From: a virus
Lineage: Duplodnaviria > Heunggongvirae > Uroviricota > Caudoviricetes
Virus record (IMG/VR): IMGVR_UViG_3300045988_138709
DNA length: 40,733 nucleotides
Direction: 5' to 3' (one strand)
The position numbers and the translations under genes were made by a program. Positions 4,210 to 12,013 of this stretch are shown piece by piece; within the stretch, counting starts at the first letter, position 1; every line of letters begins with the position of its first letter. Under the pieces are notes generated by a model, which did not search any database, was not told the origin of the DNA, and saw only the letters and a list, made by a program, of their open reading frames with translations.

Positions 4210-4355
4210 GTTTCTCCACAAAACAGAGAAGAACACCTGCGGTGACTGCCGCCCGGATGGATTGGGTTATGAGCCCGTCGTCCGGTGATGCTCTTCTCTG
4301 TTTTGTAAAAAGGACGGTACCAGCCGGAAGCAAGGGTACAAGCTGGTACCGCCAA
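4210..4355. other. Structured non-coding block: nested long inverted repeats
   Basis: ~17-bp inverted repeat ACAAAACAGAGAAGAAC / GCTCTTCTCTGTTTTGT (about 4219-4235 and 4291-4307) and a perfect 9-bp stem GGTACCAGC/GCTGGTACC (about 4317-4351). Overlapping low-quality ORFs on both strands. Confidence 0.4.
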
Positions 4356-4637
4356 GACTACACACAGCATAAAGTTGTGGTGCCGGGTGCCTCCCGGTGC
4401 CTGGCGAAGGTTGCACACCAGGCGGGTGGGTATCCACAGAAGGTCGACTGTCAGCCTCAACCTTAACCCGCGTGCGCTGAGCCGCATTCACCACAACGCT
4501 AAGGATTCTCTCTGGTTGAAAATACTTAGCTGTTATGTGCCTGCTTTTAGCCACATCAGGCGAGGTGGACCTAGTTATTCCCCAACAACAAGGATTCGGT
4601 TAATCTGGTTATCCCCAACAACGCAAAAGGAAAAGAA

Positions 4638-5484: not shown

Positions 5485-6159
5485 TTAGGCTTTGATTTTG
5501 TATCTTCTTGGTTTTCCTGAGAAAATCACTGTACCAATTATAGAGCAATTACCGTTGATCTTAATGTAAGGCTCAGGCCAGTTTGGGTTTAACGCTTTGA
5601 GATAACGCTGTGTCCCATCTTCTATTAACCTTTTGAAGGTGGTTTCACCTGTATCGTGCATCAATGCAATAACGTCGTCACCGTGGCAGGCAGGTACTTC
5701 AGGATCGACAAAAATCATGTCTCCCGGGCGGTACTCATCAATCATTGAATCACCTATCACCCGCAAGATATAAGTCATTTCCCCACAGGGTACAGGGCAG
5801 GGATACGTTTCTGCTGTGCTCAAATCAACCTCAGAATATCCAACTTCTTTCCATGCTCCGGCCTGTACCCATGATATGACAGGGACTAATGTGATTTGTT
5901 TATTAGTGATTGAAACATCAGGTTTTTTTGTGATGTTCGTTGTCTGGTGTTCTTGATCGAGCCATCCGACAGGTAGGTCGAAACATTTTTCGATGTGTCG
6001 TGCCATGCTGTCACCGATATTTTTAGTAGCACCATCTCCCATAAACCTGCTGGTCTGGGTTGGCTCGCGATCAATCATAGTGGCAAAGGAAGAATTCCCG
6101 CCAACACCATCTCTCAGTTTTCTGGCGTTAGACCGCCGGATGTCATGGATTGTTTTCAT
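5485..6159 (-). CDS. cI: CI-like phage repressor (N-terminal HTH plus C-terminal S24 LexA-like peptidase domain)
   Basis: 224 aa; C-terminal autocleavage-domain motifs (...VISWVQAGAW..., GDSM, ...TFKRL...); divergent from the Cro-like gene; no obvious SD ahead of its ATG. Confidence 0.85.
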   Translation of the reverse strand: MKTIHDIRRSNARKLRDGVGGNSSFATMIDREPTQTSRFMGDGATKNIGDSMARHIEKCFDLPVGWLDQEHQTTNITKKPDVSITNKQITLVPVISWVQAGAWKEVGYSEVDLSTAETYPCPVPCGEMTYILRVIGDSMIDEYRPGDMIFVDPEVPACHGDDVIALMHDTGETTFKRLIEDGTQRYLKALNPNWPEPYIKINGNCSIIGTVIFSGKPRRYKIKA

Positions 6160-6169
6160 AACGAAATTA

Positions 6170-6249
6170 AAACCCTTGTACCGTTAAGGTACAAGTATCT
6201 TGAAGGTTCATTTCAATCATGTAATATGTACACCGGAGGTACATATTGT
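6170..6249. promoter_or_regulatory. OR region: two palindromic operators plus pR (TTGAAG-16-TAATAT)
   Basis: Palindromes CTTGTACC-N5-GGTACAAG (about 6175-6195) and ATATGTAC-N7-GTACATAT (about 6224-6246, overlapping the -10 at 6222-6227); -35 TTGAAG at about 6200-6205. Confidence 0.55.
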
Positions 6250-6450
6250 ATGAAAGCGTATTGGGACTCTTTAACCAAAGAACAGCAGGGCGAGTTGGCC
6301 GGAAAAGTTGGCTCAACACCTGGCTACTTACGGCTGGTTTTCAATGGCTATAAAAAAGCCAGTTTTGTGCTGGCTAAAAAACTTGAGCAATGCACGTCAG
6401 GTGCAATTACGAAATCTGACTTAAGACCGGATATCTATCCGAAAGATTAG
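6250..6450 (+). CDS. cro: Cro-like HTH regulator
   Basis: 66-aa protein from internal ATG (MKAYWDSLTKEQQGELAGKVGSTPGYLRLVFNG...) of ORF 5995..6450; sits directly behind pR/operator, divergent from the repressor. Confidence 0.7.
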   Translation: MKAYWDSLTKEQQGELAGKVGSTPGYLRLVFNGYKKASFVLAKKLEQCTSGAITKSDLRPDIYPKD

Positions 6451-6481
6451 CAGAACACTTTCAATTTTTAACCACAGAACG

Positions 6482-7045
6482 ATGAGGCTAATCGTGGGTA
6501 AGCATCACTGGAAAATAGAAAAACAGCCTGAGTGGTACGTGAAAGCTGTCAGAAAAACTATCGCGGCGTTGCCGGGGGGTTACGCTGAAGCGGCTGACTG
6601 GCTCGATGTAACAGAAAACGCTTTATTCAACCGCCTTCGTGCAGATGGCGATCAGATTTTCCCGCTGGGATGGGCAATGGTTTTACAGCGTGCTGGTGGC
6701 ACTCACTTCATTGCTGATGCTGTGGCGCAGTCTGCAAATGGCGTCTTTGTGTCTCTTCCTGACGTCGAGGATGTGGACAACGCCGATATTAACCAGCGTC
6801 TGCTGGAAGTCATTGAACAGATCGGCAGTTATTCAAAACAGATTCGTTCAGCAATCGAAGACGGTGTAGTGGAACCGCATGAGAAGACAGCAATTAACGA
6901 CGAGCTGTACCTCTCAATTTCGAAGCTGCAGGAGCATGCAGCACTGGTCTACAAAATCTTTTGCGTTTCAGAAAGTAGTGGCGCCCGCGAGTGTGCAGCT
7001 CCGGGCGCCGTGGCGTGTCGTGACTGTGGAGAAACTAACGCATGA
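6482..7045 (+). CDS. Putative CII-like regulatory protein
   Basis: 187-aa ORF in the position of a lambdoid cII; family assignment is a weak recollection (CP76-type CII) without motif proof. Confidence 0.45.
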
Positions 7046-7380
7046 ACAGTTTAACAACACACTACCGTCGCTCGCAACTGATTGCGCTTCCTGTACCGGG
7101 TGGAAAAGCGAAGGTGGAATATTGCTATGCAGTGAATGTACCAGGTGACAGGGAAATTGTAACCCACAGCTTTGCAGAGTGGGCTGTGGGGGATTTCAAC
7201 CGGCAGAAGGAGACAGTCCTTTGCGACAAGTTAACCGCTGGTTCAAAGATCACTACGGAGTGCCCGTCAGAGTCATTCGTTGGGAGCCGGAAACACAACG
7301 GGTTATCTACCTCCGCGAAGGCTATGAGCATGAGTGCTTCAGTCCGCTCGAACAGTTTCGTCGTAAATTCAGGGAAATAG
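7042..7380 (+). CDS. Hypothetical protein; likely frame-disrupted (continues in ORF 7179..7400)
   Basis: ATGA overlap with the upstream gene. The first ~60 aa look protein-like, then a low-complexity Ser-rich tail, while the protein-like sequence continues in the +1-shifted ORF 7179..7400. Confidence 0.4.
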
Positions 7381-7389
7381 AGGTCGGTC

Positions 7390-8331
7390 ATGAGCACTAA
7401 ATTAACCGGCTATGTATGGGATGGTTGCGCAGCGTCAGGCATGAAATTATCCAGCGTGGCAATTATGGCCCGCCTGGCTGATTTCAGTAATGACGAAGGT
7501 GTGTGCTGGCCATCAATTGAAACTATTGCCCGTCAGATTGGCGCGGGGATGAGTACCGTCAGGACGGCTATCGCACGGCTGGAAGCAGAAGGCTGGTTAA
7601 CGCGTAAGGCGCGTCGCCAGGGTAACCGCAATGCGTCGAATGTTTATCAGCTTAACGTTGCGAAGCTTCAGGCAGCGGCATTTTCTCAACTGTCAGATTC
7701 TGACCCGTCAAAATCTGACGCATCAAAATCTGACCCGTCAAAATTTGATGCGTCGAAATCTGGCAAAAAAGCGGGTTTTCACCCGTCAGAATCTGGCGGG
7801 GATCCGTCAGTAAAATCAAAACATGATCCGTTAGATAAAAAACCTTCTCGTCCGGACGCTTCGCAACCGGACACGCAGACGGATGAACAGGATTTTTTAA
7901 CTCGCCATCCTGATGCGGTTGTATTCAGCCCTAAAAAGCGCCAGTGGGGAACGCAGGATGATTTGACCTGCGCACAGTGGCTCTGGAAAAAAATCATTGC
8001 CCTGTACGAGCAGGCCGCCGAATGTGACGGCGAGGTGGTTCGTCCCAAAGAACCGAACTGGACAGCATGGGCAAACGAAATTCGCCTGATGTGTGTGCAG
8101 GATGGTCGTACTCACAAACAAATCTGCGAGATGTACAGCCGCGTCAGCCGCGATCCGTTCTGGTGCCGTAACGTGCTCAGCCCGTCGAAGTTGCGGGAAA
8201 AATGGGATGAGCTTTCCCTGCGCTTATCGCCGTCCGTCAGCACGCACACAGAAAAACGTGAAGACCCGTACTTCAAAGCCAGTTACGACAACGTGGACTA
8301 CAGCCAGATCCCGGCAGGATTCAGGGGGTGA
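7390..8331 (+). CDS. Replication initiator (lambda O-like; N-terminal HTH, repetitive linker, C-terminal domain)
   Basis: 313 aa; N-terminal HTH (...SSVAIMARLADFSNDEGVCWPSIETIARQIG...); iteron array inside the gene encodes an SDPSKSD-type linker; position after cro/cII. Confidence 0.8.
   Translation: MSTKLTGYVWDGCAASGMKLSSVAIMARLADFSNDEGVCWPSIETIARQIGAGMSTVRTAIARLEAEGWLTRKARRQGNRNASNVYQLNVAKLQAAAFSQLSDSDPSKSDASKSDPSKFDASKSGKKAGFHPSESGGDPSVKSKHDPLDKKPSRPDASQPDTQTDEQDFLTRHPDAVVFSPKKRQWGTQDDLTCAQWLWKKIIALYEQAAECDGEVVRPKEPNWTAWANEIRLMCVQDGRTHKQICEMYSRVSRDPFWCRNVLSPSKLREKWDELSLRLSPSVSTHTEKREDPYFKASYDNVDYSQIPAGFRG
7691..7797. repeat. Iteron array (5-6 copies of a ~15-bp unit, consensus CCGTCAAAATCTGAC) - candidate origin
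   Basis: Tandem units at about 7691, 7705, 7720, 7735, 7750 and 7783, followed by an A-rich stretch, all inside the O-like gene as for lambda ori. Confidence 0.65.
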
Positions 8332-8822
8332 TCATGAGTCTTTTGAATGAAGTTCAGAAATTCATTGAAGCCCATCCGGGGTGTACTTCCGGAGACATTG
8401 CGGATGCTTTTGCAGGTTACTCACGGCAGCGCGTTCTGCAGTCAGCAAGCAAGTTACGTCAGAGTGGGCGTGTGGCTCACCGTTGTGAAGGAGATACACG
8501 CAGACATTTCCCACGCCTGACTGAGAGAGCGCAGGAGCCAGAACCACAACCAGTTCGTGAAACCAGACCTGTGCGCAATTTCTATGTCGGCACTAACGAT
8601 CCCCGGGTGATTTTGTGCCTGACCCGCCAGGCGGAAGAACTGGAGTCCAGGGGCTTATACCGTCGTGCTGCAACGGTGTGGATGGCGGCATTCCGTGAAA
8701 GCCACTCCCAGCCAGAACGAAACAATTTTCTGGCGCGTCGTGAGCAGTGTTTACGGAAAAGCAGCAAGCGCGCTGTATCGGGTGATGAGTGGTATCTGTC
8801 AGGGAATTACGTGGGGGCTTAA
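8328..8822 (+). CDS. Hypothetical protein with winged-helix-like N-terminus
   Basis: 164-aa ORF, ATGA-coupled to the O-like gene. No helicase-loader motifs, so not a P/DnaC-like protein. Confidence 0.55.
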   Translation: MIMSLLNEVQKFIEAHPGCTSGDIADAFAGYSRQRVLQSASKLRQSGRVAHRCEGDTRRHFPRLTERAQEPEPQPVRETRPVRNFYVGTNDPRVILCLTRQAEELESRGLYRRAATVWMAAFRESHSQPERNNFLARREQCLRKSSKRAVSGDEWYLSGNYVGA

Positions 8823-9475
8823 TGAGTAATAAATATTGCCAGGAGCTGGTGGAACTGCGGAACAAACCAGCCCATGAACTGAAGGAAGTGGGTGATCAGT
8901 GGCGCACGCCGGACAACATTTTCTGGGGAATTAATACCCTGTTTGGCCCGTTTGTTCTGGATCTGTTCACTGACGGTGATAACGCCAAATGTGCTGCGTA
9001 TTACACGGCGGAAGACAACGCGCTGGCGCATGACTGGTCAGAACGTCTTGCGGAGCTTAAAGGGGCTGCCTTTGGTAATCCCCCATACAGCCGCGCCAGT
9101 CAGCATGAGGGGCAATACATCACCGGCATGCGTTACATCATGAAGCATGCCAGTGCCATGCGTGATAAAGGCGGGCGCTATGTTTTCCTGATCAAAGCTG
9201 CCACCAGCGAAGTGTGGTGGCCGGAAGATGCAGACCATATTGCTTTTATTCGCGGGCGTATTGGTTTTGAACTGCCTGTCTGGTTTATCCCGAAAGACGA
9301 GAAGCAGGTGCCGACAGGAGCGTTCTTCGCTGGTGCTATTGCTGTTTTCGATAAGACCTGGAAGGGACCGGCAATCAGCTACATCGGGCGCGATGAACTT
9401 GAGACATGTGGTGAGGCGTTTCTGGCGCAGGTTCGCCAGCAGGCGGAAAAACTGATCAGGGAGATGGCGGCATGA
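8822..9475 (+). CDS. Phage DNA N6-adenine methyltransferase (Dam-like)
   Basis: Motif ...FGNPPYS... (NPPY catalytic motif); start moved to ATG (MSNKYCQELV...), overlapping the upstream stop. Confidence 0.8.
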   Translation: MSNKYCQELVELRNKPAHELKEVGDQWRTPDNIFWGINTLFGPFVLDLFTDGDNAKCAAYYTAEDNALAHDWSERLAELKGAAFGNPPYSRASQHEGQYITGMRYIMKHASAMRDKGGRYVFLIKAATSEVWWPEDADHIAFIRGRIGFELPVWFIPKDEKQVPTGAFFAGAIAVFDKTWKGPAISYIGRDELETCGEAFLAQVRQQAEKLIREMAA

Positions 9476-9798
9476 CGACATTAACTCAATGCCAGCAGCA
9501 GGTGCTGGATATGCTGATTTCTTATCAGAAAGAACGTGGCTTCCCGCCAACCAATCAGGAGGTGGCTACCATGCTGGGATACCGTTCAGTGAATGCAGCG
9601 GTGGAGCATCTTCGCGCACTGGAGAAAAAAGGCGTCATCACGATAAAGCGTGGCGTGGCACGGGGGATAACGCTTCATACCGCGGTGAAGGACGACGACA
9701 GCGAGGCGGTCGGGATTATCCGCTCACTGCTTGCCGGTGAGGAAAACGCCAGGCTGCGTGCAGCCCACTGGTTACATGAGAGGGGCCTGAAAGTATGA
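9472..9798 (+). CDS. LexA N-terminal DNA-binding-domain protein (no peptidase domain)
   Basis: 108 aa; winged-HTH resembling the LexA DNA-binding domain (...NQEVATMLGYRSVNAAVEHLRALEKKGVITI...); ATGA-coupled. Confidence 0.55.
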   Translation: MTTLTQCQQQVLDMLISYQKERGFPPTNQEVATMLGYRSVNAAVEHLRALEKKGVITIKRGVARGITLHTAVKDDDSEAVGIIRSLLAGEENARLRAAHWLHERGLKV

Positions 9799-10184
9799 AG
9801 CTGATCCTGCCTTTTCCGCCCAGCGTGAACACGTACTGGCGACACCCCAACAAAGGGGCGTTTGCTGGTAAGAGCCTGATAAGCTCGGCGGGGCGAAAAT
9901 TCCAGAGCGCGGCGTGCGCAGCAATAGTTGAGCAGTTACGTCGTCTGCCGAAACCAACGTCGGCACCTGCTTCAGTGGAGATCGTGTTGTTTCCTCCGGA
10001 TAACAGGATCCGCGATCTGGACAACTATAACAAGGCGCTGTTTGACGCCCTGACCCACGCGGGGGTGTGGGAAGACGACAGTCAGGTGAAAAGAATGCTG
10101 GTGGAGTGGGGACCGGTTATCCCGGAAGGGAAGGTCGAGATCACTATCAGTAAGTACGAGAAAACGGCGGGTGCAGCCGCCTGA
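9795..10184 (+). CDS. rusA: RusA Holliday-junction resolvase
   Basis: 129 aa; MKLILPFPPSVNTYWR...RDLDNYNKALFDALTHAGVWEDDSQV matches RusA catalytic-core pattern. Confidence 0.9.
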   Translation: MKLILPFPPSVNTYWRHPNKGAFAGKSLISSAGRKFQSAACAAIVEQLRRLPKPTSAPASVEIVLFPPDNRIRDLDNYNKALFDALTHAGVWEDDSQVKRMLVEWGPVIPEGKVEITISKYEKTAGAAA

Positions 10185-10203
10185 TTAAGAGGAGAAACGA
10201 AGT

Positions 10204-11001
10204 ATGAATAATCTGATGGTTATTGATGGTATTGAAGTTCGTCGTGATGCTTATGGGCGTTACAGCCTGAACGATCTGCACAGGGCTGCTGGTTCTCTGG
10301 ATAAGCATAAGCCTGCATTCTGGCTCCGCAATGAGCAAACTGAGCGTTTAATAAGCGAGTTGCAGATTTGCAACTCGGTCAATATAGAGCCAGTTAACGT
10401 TATTCGTGGCGGAAATAACCAGGGGACGTATGTCTGCAAAGAACTGGTGTATGCCTATGCAATGTGGATCAGCCCGTCATTCCATCTGAAGGTGATCCGT
10501 ACTTTCGACATGGTAACCAGCGCACCGGAAAAATTATCCGGACAGGCTGCTGACAAGATGCAGGCTGGTGTGATTCTGCTGGACTTTATGCGCCGGGAAT
10601 TAAACCTGTCTAACTCTTCAGTGCTTGGTGCCTGCCAGAAACTCCAGGAGGCTGTTGGCTTACCGAATCTGGCACCGCGCTATGCCATTGATGCTCCTGC
10701 TGATGCACACGATGGCTCAAGTCGCCCCACGCTGTCTCTGAGTGCACTGCTGAGGCAGTATGGTATCCGCCTGACGGCTAATCAGGCATATCACCAGATG
10801 GTGAAGCTGGGGATCGTTGAACAACGCGAACGATACAGCCGTACCGCGATTAACAACATCAAAAAATTCTGGTCGCTGACGGCGAAAGGCTGCATGTTCG
10901 GCAAGAACATCACCAGTCCTGCAAATCCGCGCGAGACGCAGCCGCATTTCTTCGAATCCCGATTCCCTGAGCTGTTAAAACTGCTCGATACCGTTCATTG
11001 A
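10204..11001 (+). CDS. KilA-N domain protein
   Basis: N-terminus MVIDGIEVRRDAYGRYSLNDLHRAAG...KPAFWLRNEQTERLI typical of the KilA-N DNA-binding domain; C-terminal domain unassigned. Confidence 0.75.
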   Translation: MNNLMVIDGIEVRRDAYGRYSLNDLHRAAGSLDKHKPAFWLRNEQTERLISELQICNSVNIEPVNVIRGGNNQGTYVCKELVYAYAMWISPSFHLKVIRTFDMVTSAPEKLSGQAADKMQAGVILLDFMRRELNLSNSSVLGACQKLQEAVGLPNLAPRYAIDAPADAHDGSSRPTLSLSALLRQYGIRLTANQAYHQMVKLGIVEQRERYSRTAINNIKKFWSLTAKGCMFGKNITSPANPRETQPHFFESRFPELLKLLDTVH

Positions 11002-11002
11002 G

Positions 11003-11998
11003 GTGACCGTGAGAGCACTACTGACCCCTGAAATTGCCCCGCGTATGGGGATTGTATTGTTCAGGCCAGGTTCAGAGCTGATGCCCCTGTTTATGCAGGG
11101 GCGTGTCCTGCTGGAGCCTGAGCCGGAACGTTATTCATCTTTCGCCAGTGGTGCCGTTCCGGCGGCATCACAACCGCTGGCGGATGATCCTGCCGTTCGG
11201 GCCGTGTTCCGCAATGAGGCAGTGATCCGTCGTGCTGGTGGCGTGGAATGTCTTGAAAGCTGGTTACTTCGTGAAAAGGGCTGTCAGTGGCCTCATTCCG
11301 ACTGGCACAGCGAGAACATGACCACAATGCGGCACGCTCCGGGAGCAATTCGTCTGTGCTGGCACTGCGATAACCAGCTGCGTGACCAGTTCACGGAACG
11401 GCTGGAATCAATGGCAACGGATAACTGTGCCCGCTGGGTGTTGTCTGTTGTGCGTCGGGATCTCGGTTTTGATGATAGTCACGTTGTGACAATGCCGGAA
11501 CTGTGCTGGTGGCTGATTCGTAATGACCTGGCGGATGCCTTACCGGAAAGTGCAGCCCGTAAGGCACTGAGATTACCAAAGCCTATTGTGCCGTCTGTCA
11601 CCCGGGAAAGTGACCTTGTGCCTTCGGTTCCTGCCACCAGCATCATCCAGGATAAGGCGAAAAAGGTGCTGGCGCTGAAAGTGGATCCGGAGTCGCCGGA
11701 GTCTTTTATGTTACGCCCAAAACGTCGCCGCTGGGTTAATGAAAAGTACACGCGCTGGGTTAAGACACAGCCGTGTGCATGTTGTGGAAAGCCCGCTGAT
11801 GATCCCCACCACCTGATAGGTTACGGTCAGGGTGGAATGGGAACAAAAGCGCATGACCTTTTTGTGTTGCCTTTGTGCAGAAAGCATCACGACGAGCTGC
11901 ATGCGGATACCGTGGCATTTGAAGAAAAGTATGGCTCCCAGCTGGAGCTGATATTTCGTTTTATCGATCGCGCGCTGGCAATTGGCGTGCTGGCCTGA
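11003..11998 (+). CDS. DUF968-like protein with C-terminal Cys/His (HNH-like) cluster
   Basis: 331 aa; C-terminal ...CACCGKPADDPHHL...CRKHHDELH...; common in lambdoid nin regions (recall). Confidence 0.65.
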   Translation: MTVRALLTPEIAPRMGIVLFRPGSELMPLFMQGRVLLEPEPERYSSFASGAVPAASQPLADDPAVRAVFRNEAVIRRAGGVECLESWLLREKGCQWPHSDWHSENMTTMRHAPGAIRLCWHCDNQLRDQFTERLESMATDNCARWVLSVVRRDLGFDDSHVVTMPELCWWLIRNDLADALPESAARKALRLPKPIVPSVTRESDLVPSVPATSIIQDKAKKVLALKVDPESPESFMLRPKRRRWVNEKYTRWVKTQPCACCGKPADDPHHLIGYGQGGMGTKAHDLFVLPLCRKHHDELHADTVAFEEKYGSQLELIFRFIDRALAIGVLA

Positions 11999-12013
11999 TT
12001 TTTTCGGAGAAAG

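Follow-up and report, generated by a model that had tools for sequence, protein, structure and literature searches.

A probable lambda-type iteron origin within the initiator gene of an SfII/SfIV/SfV-like prophage whose initiator ends in a DnaT-like tail

The replication origin of phage lambda is found within gene O, where several dyad-symmetric iterons (four annotated) lie between the parts coding for the N- and C-terminal domains of the initiator, with an AT-rich stretch on their right. Gene O belongs to the pR operon, after cro and cII, and the C-domain of lambda O contacts P. Four gp15 sites are annotated in gene 15 of phi80 and a rep_origin inside gene 18 of P22, and in both phages a partner protein is encoded, the P-like gp14 in phi80 and the DnaB-like gp12 in P22. 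The plasmid-type origins of pSC101, R6K, RK2 and P1 oriR rely on a single winged-helix initiator, on tandem iterons placed beside an AT-rich region and on the host DnaB-DnaC. In gene 18 of phage L, six 11-bp repeats have been proposed as the origin (PMC8022706). Zheng et al. 2025 (PMC12315714) describe "O-only" modules in phage LLS and in 34 of 314 lambdoid phages, the replication of which "is not yet understood." Finally, DopC is a domesticated O-like protein in which HTH_36 is combined with the C-terminal element of DnaT (Brezellec et al. 2017, PMC5509034).

Here, we have analysed a stretch of 40,733 bp (the window), which is an SfII/SfIV/SfV-like lambdoid prophage of E. coli/Shigella, and compared a repeat array within its O-like gene with these systems. 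As in lambda, the repeats lie between the N- and C-domain coding parts of the initiator gene, with an AT-rich stretch on their right and in an operon where the gene comes after cro- and cII-like genes; the C-domains are homologous, and in both phages "N-domain + iterons" move as one recombination module. The same relative position is occupied by the annotated phi80 sites (gp15 also having a related C-domain) and by the P22 origin, and the repeats in gene 18 of phage L match the layout of 7692-7797. Unlike lambda O, with its Phage_rep_O N-domain, the initiator has an HTH_36 N-domain. The lambda iterons number four, measure about 19 bp and occur every 20-24 bp, whereas the window has six 13-bp sites at a period of 15 bp; lambda has a longer and stronger AT-rich region than the one found here (30 bp at 77% AT); the P gene is absent from the window; and the protein ends in IPAGFRG, whereas the lambda O tail reads TDWIYGVDL. 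The iteron sequences and N-domains of phi80, P22 and phage L are unrelated to those described here, and the window has no counterpart of the partner encoded in phi80 and P22. With the iteron plasmids the locus shares the winged-helix initiator, the tandem iterons and the AT-rich neighbour, and with P1 oriR and oriC the GATC sites. Unlike those plasmids, the putative origin has no DnaA box, lies within the initiator coding sequence and has a period of 15 bp instead of about 22 bp. Characterised iteron origins, including that of lambda, show a roughly two-turn spacing, whereas 15 bp amounts to ~1.4 turns.

The initiator ORF (942 bp) was 98-99% identical to the "replication/primosomal/O" gene of SfII and SfIV, as well as to genes of several E. 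coli phages. PhiR phages were among the best matches; their genes, which carry the annotation "DNA replication protein O," were 98% identical. A near-full-length match (at least 80% of the gene) was present in 1,576 of the 5,426 complete E. coli genomes. The gene order from 5485 to Q is that of a lambda-like early-right operon (Table 1). Upstream of the initiator, an ORF at 7042-7380 (PHROG 1170, annotated in SfIV) and another at 7179-7400 (Pfam DUF4222, RefSeq-annotated) overlap by ~200 nt in different frames, the latter also overlapping the initiator start by 11 nt. These are either alternative annotations or a genuine overlap or frameshift.

Table 1. Features of the initiator gene and of its early-right neighbourhood, in window coordinates
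Feature	Position	Strand	Basis or content
CI-like repressor	5485-6159	minus	Early-right gene order
Cro-like gene	Between CI-like repressor and CII/YmfL-like gene		
CII/YmfL-like gene	6482-7045		
Small gene(s)	Between CII/YmfL-like gene and initiator		
Replication initiator gene	7390-8331	+	313 aa; HTH_36 N-domain, disordered linker, lambda-O-type C-domain, DnaT-like tail
N-terminal winged-helix DNA-binding domain, residues 1-98	7390-7683	+	pLDDT 70-89; H-H-H-H-E-E topology
Five tandem iterons, 13-bp cores, 15-bp period	7692-7764	.	Repeat scans; fixed codons TCA-AAA-TCT in 67 genes
Spacer: A6 run, then G+C-rich GCGGGTTTTCACCC	7765-7784	.	Direct reading of the sequence
Sixth, solitary iteron GTCAGAATCTGGC	7785-7797	.	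Core scan; same offset in most related genes
Conserved box GATCCGTCAGTAAAATCAAAACATGATCCGTTAGATAAAAAACC	7801-7846	.	Two GATC, two iteron half-sites (CCGTCAG / CCGTTAG), AT-rich patch
Conserved junction common to all mosaic partners; boundary of the "N-domain + origin" and "C-domain" modules	7833-7868	.	
C-terminal domain, residues 162-282	7873-8235	+	Lambda O C-domain homologue; pLDDT 85-95
C-terminal tail SQIPAGFRG, residues 305-313	8302-8328	+	8/9 residues shared with the E. coli DnaT C-terminus SQIPPGFRG
PerC/YfdN-family gene	8328-8822	+	Pfam PerC E=1e-9; PHROG 1324 "transcriptional activator"
Phage Dam-type N6-adenine methyltransferase	8789-9475	+	Pfam PF05869 E=1e-45
LexA-like DNA-binding protein, then RusA, KilA-N, DUF968/HNH, Q	3' of Dam gene		

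The initiator belongs to PHROG 391 ("replication initiation O-like," E=1e-135), and its N-domain was recognized as Pfam HTH_36 (E=4e-11); NCBIfam had no family for the protein, and the Pfam search gave no match to Phage_rep_O (PF04492). Lambda O was aligned by BLASTP (E=6e-26; 216 aa at 31% identity; residues 70-277), the similarity being strong only in the C-domain, which in tblastn matched the O-type proteins of lambda, 434 and phi80. With a lambda-type C-domain joined to a non-lambda DNA-binding N-domain, the initiator is thus a chimera in lambda terms. The name "O-like initiator," given to it in a first-pass annotation of this DNA, therefore suits the C-domain and not the N-domain, which is HTH_36 instead of Phage_rep_O. 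In the AlphaFold2 prediction, which had a 23-sequence alignment as input, a disordered stretch at residues 103-161 (pLDDT <50) separated the two folded domains. Foldseek searches of the PDB returned only MarR/ArsR-type winged helices for the N-domain (best E 2e-3) and no match for the C-domain, and the PDB sequence search with the initiator gave only weak MarR-type matches, on the N-domain.

Tandem Repeats Finder detected a period of 15 (4.3 copies, 81% matches) at 7699-7762, with a slightly better 30-bp super-period (88%), and no comparable array elsewhere in the window. The core of the unit is a 13-bp near-palindrome, GTCA(A/G)AATCTGAC, of which six in-register copies were found within 7692-7797 (106 bp), spaced by 15, 15, 15, 15 and 33 bp. 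One unit, GTCAGATTCTGAC, is a perfect 6+1+6 dyad (GTCAGA-T-TCTGAC), and the remaining ones are near-palindromes. Scanning with the core GTCAAAATCTGAC at up to 2 mismatches located the sites at 7692, 7707, 7722, 7737, 7752 and 7785, so that seven of the eight core matches of the window fell within the array (the palindromic 7692 site counts on both strands). A chance origin of the repeats was rejected, as 1.04 ± 1.06 core matches were expected in the whole window and none of 100 shuffles reached eight. The first-pass annotation had described five to six ~15-bp tandem units followed by an A-rich stretch; these correspond to five tandem units plus one located 33 bp further on, and the A-rich stretch was recovered in two forms, an A6 run at 7765-7770 and an AT-rich patch at 7811-7840. 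The interval of 7690-7800 that it had assigned to the array suits the iterons; the element as a whole reaches ~7868.

The array codes for initiator residues 101-136. Given the pLDDT values below 50 at residues 103-161, the iterons are in linker-coding DNA, between the parts coding for the folded domains, a location that had been proposed from the sequence and that the structure prediction bore out. The 33-bp offset of the sixth iteron is retained in many homologues, and the number of tandem copies varied from 4 to 7 among near-identical relatives, which made up most of the IMG/VR scan, informative for copy-number variation only. On two E. coli chromosomes (L091 and L092), gene copies devoid of the first 78 codons retain all six iterons. 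They resemble the defective remnant of yfdO type in the CPS-53 prophage, and origin DNA would in these cases outlast the loss of the DNA-binding domain.

We have then considered whether the repeats are constrained as DNA or as the peptide that they encode. Compared with Citrobacter phage phiNP, identity was 92% at 7692-7764 and 93% at 7692-7819 vs 78% in the N-domain coding DNA. At third codon positions, 7692-7819 had 88% identity and the N-domain coding part 50% (Fisher p=1e-5). A recombination patch could be a partial cause of this high local identity. For the codon test, 137 units of the form S[KE]S[DE] were taken from 67 distinct genes, representing many enterobacterial species. In these units the first Ser was TCA in 97% of cases (17% background), the second Ser was TCT in 87% (9% background) and Lys was AAA in 100% (62% background); the comparison genes are phylogenetically related, so these counts overstate independence. 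The codon usage showed that the repeats are conserved as nucleotide sequence, independently of the encoded peptide. Taken with the synonymous constraint relative to phiNP, the near-fixed codons and the palindromic units identify the repeats as DNA elements.

The opposite reading is that the array is a coding feature only, a low-complexity Ser/Lys/Asp linker of DPSKS/DASKS pentapeptides expanded by slippage and with no role as DNA. The units are indeed in frame, they encode a repetitive peptide within a disordered linker, and their copy number changes in steps of 15 nt. Yet the synonymous positions are nearly fixed, the units show a palindromy at the DNA level for which a peptide repeat has no need, the repeat type tracks the DNA-binding domain (see below), and the arrays of unrelated initiators have periods of 20-24 nt, mostly not multiples of three. 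We regard a purely coding role as hardly credible.

The relationship between the repeats and the protein domains was examined in 84 initiator genes, comprising 78 of the 80 loci from one-genome-per-species contigs and six reference phages. When the N-domain was at least 70% identical to that of the window initiator, 63 of 65 genes carried two or more motif copies. In the 19 genes whose N-domain was more distant the motif was absent, and all 19 had an array of their own at the same relative position. In the "MSSKLHGLVW" subtype (N-domain 58-65% identical) this array consisted of CCCCTCAAATATTGA units, also with 15-bp spacing; in the locus L107 it was formed by TTCAGATTCTGAAC units, and the other distant-N-domain genes had array periods of 21-24 bp. 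As a positive control, the same blind scan recovered the annotated iterons of lambda and phi80.

Two natural chimeras illustrate this exchange. phiNP shares the N-domain and the 15-bp iterons with the window initiator gene and has an unrelated C-domain (Phg_2220_C). In mEp460 the C-domain is shared (99% identity), the N-domain is unrelated, and the position of the iterons is taken by a different array, with 23-bp repeats (GGTCAAAATGAC...). The mEp460 match begins at query position 444 and the phiNP match stops at 479, and in the protein alignment this junction contains an invariant ASQP. Across the genes compared, the iteron sequence type changed with the N-domain and not with the C-domain. 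It is this covariation that suggests that the iterons are specific for the initiator N-domain.

The segment at 7811-7840, within the conserved box to the right of the iterons, has 77% AT, whereas the window averages 49%, and no 30-mer of the early-right operon (6160-12000) has a lower stability. In this box, Asp was encoded by GAT and Ser by TCA in all of the 66 distinct genes compared (66/66 in each case; background of 55% and 15%, respectively), and the box was retained in genes with different iteron types. We propose 7801-7846 as a candidate DNA-unwinding element. Two GATC (Dam) sites, 24 bp apart, are present in 7801-7834. Their presence in a box of fixed codons, together with the phage Dam gene, makes methylation control of the origin possible, as occurs in oriC and P1 oriR. 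In related loader-less modules, one or two methyltransferase genes are often found directly 3' of the initiator.

The DnaA boxes that had been suggested as a check near the array were absent, with no match to TTATCCACA at up to one mismatch within 7034-10295. Over the whole window, one-mismatch DnaA-like boxes were over-represented (18 vs 8.75 expected, with 0/100 shuffles reaching 18), forming a loose same-strand group at 4212-4617, and others were located in 6468-7033. This excess could be taken to favour initiation elsewhere in the genome, the initiator binding the sites in its gene chiefly for operator functions (autoregulation, a roadblock to transcription or handcuffing). Plasmid iterons are established to have both regulatory and origin roles, which also speaks for such a function. 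However, every one of the DnaA-like boxes contains a mismatch and none lies within 7034-10295, there is no comparable repeat array elsewhere in the window, a conserved, easily melted box adjoins the iterons, and the architecture agrees with the annotated origins of lambda, phi80 and P22. An operator function with initiation at another place thus appears improbable.

We consider it likely that these repeats are the iterons of a lambda-type replication origin located inside its own initiator gene. The lambda ori arrangement invoked in the first-pass annotation was upheld, since the iterons correspond in relative position to those annotated in lambda and phi80 and to the annotated P22 origin, and a melting-prone stretch adjoins them. 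We found no description of an origin at 7692-7868 in the literature on iterons or origins of SfV, SfII and SfIV and on "initiator-solo." The plan of the origin is ordinary, and it adds an HTH_36 specificity class with a 13-bp dyad and a 15-bp period to the known lambdoid scheme. What is unusual is that a helicase-loader gene is absent and that the initiator terminates in a copy of the DnaT tail, DnaT being a replication-restart protein of the host.

The absence of a P/DnaC-like loader downstream, already remarked on from the open reading frames, extended to the entire window. Searches with phmmer (E<=1e-3) for homologues of lambda P, phi80 gp14, E. coli DnaC and DnaB, and P22 gp12 were negative for all window ORFs of at least 60 aa, and no replication protein besides the initiator came up when the early-left and early-right genes were scanned against PHROG and Pfam. 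The gene that follows the initiator encodes a PerC/YfdN-family protein without homology to P, DnaC or DnaB. With a lone O-homologue gene and neither helicase nor loader, the window contains an "O-only" module as this is defined in PMC12315714. As far as it was searched, that article makes no mention of iterons or DnaT, and relative to it the iteron origin and the tail motif are additions to the description of the "O-only" module.

The initiator ends in ...VDYSQIPAGFRG and E. coli DnaT in ...SEPDSQIPPGFRG. The DnaT tail (IPxGFRG) was invariant in 21 DnaT orthologues. A longer match to DnaT, of ~20 residues, was present in some relatives, as in Kluyvera, where ~20 residues are common to the initiator (RERDINAISQPNDTIPPGFRG) and DnaT (KRDINAISQPDSQIPPGFRG); the tail was also seen in the loci L125, L136, L155, L161, L167 and L007. 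The likeness to DnaT concerns the extreme C-terminus. In contrast, the DNA-binding three-helix domain of DnaT (PF17948) had no Pfam match in the initiator, and when the initiator and DnaT families were compared by hhalign, 13 tail columns alone were aligned, with a probability of 21%. The idea that the lambda-O-type C-domain is itself a DnaT domain was dropped, as hhalign found no core homology. The GFR tail occurred on three unrelated C-domains (lambda-O type, Phg_2220_C and Stx2a_1447/Ayreon type). The protein resembles DopC in that an O-like HTH_36 N-terminus is joined to the DnaT C-terminal element. The last 76 nt of the gene (8256-8331) were 98.7% identical to those of many Stx2, cdtI and Ayreon phages with otherwise unrelated initiators; this segment is a mosaic junction carrying both the tail and the beginning of the yfdN-like gene.

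The type of tail was compared with the presence of P at 87 loci, including 10 P-associated and 57 GFR-tailed initiators (10 + 57 = 67). All 10 initiators followed by a P homologue had Trp-rich tails (TDWIYG... or W..W.E.TL), and none of the 57 GFR-tailed initiators was accompanied by P or DnaB. The association of tail type with P presence gave a Fisher p=4e-12, a value computed on lineages that are not independent. At the locus L156, a GFR-tailed initiator is followed by a dnaC-like gene, which is the arrangement of the host dnaT-dnaC operon.

The helicase might also be recruited by the PerC/YfdN-like protein, which would then do the work of P without being its homologue, in place of the initiator tail. 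Its start overlaps the initiator stop codon (GTGA), at the position held by P in lambda, its N-terminal part is MarR-like/winged-helix-like, and its gene came after about half of the GFR-tailed initiators, other species included. On the other hand, about half of the loader-less modules are devoid of PerC/YfdN, among them those of phiNP and HannyBb, in some loci that do have P (L101 and L147) the gene is likewise found, 3' of it, and the PerC family is annotated as transcriptional activators. Recruitment by the PerC/YfdN-like protein therefore seems unlikely to us.

The initiator tail is another candidate. In the loader-less initiators, a portable DnaT-type peptide, ...(RD[IV]N..S.PD..)IPxGFRG, may replace P and bring in DnaB-DnaC, directly or via PriA, a hypothesis that falls short of being probable and for which the support, from the comparison of tails and gene content given above, is correlational. 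The peptide would be either copied from or shared with the host DnaT.

Combining these observations, initiation could proceed as follows. After early rightward transcription, N-domain dimers would fill the iterons and form an O-some-like complex. Since the 15-bp period corresponds to ~1.4 turns, neighbouring dimers would not share one face of the helix, and every second site would be roughly in phase. This complex would strain and open the adjacent AT-rich box. As no P, DnaC or DnaB gene is present, we propose that the C-domain of the initiator and/or its DnaT-like tail would recruit the host helicase-loading machinery, either DnaB-DnaC directly or the PriA restart primosome.

The putative origin offers a precise origin annotation for a prophage type with an initiator match in about 1,580 of the 5,426 complete E. 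coli genomes. The replication-restart literature describes the recruitment of DnaB-DnaC by DnaT or the restart primosome as unknown, and we found no function for the DnaT tail there, including in the papers on the preprimosome cryo-EM and the DnaT crystal structure. If the proposal for the initiator tail is true, the same tail would also serve DnaT, as its element of handover to DnaB-DnaC during replication restart. A DnaT-like tail could explain both the loading of DnaB in loader-less phages and the role of the DnaT tail in restart.
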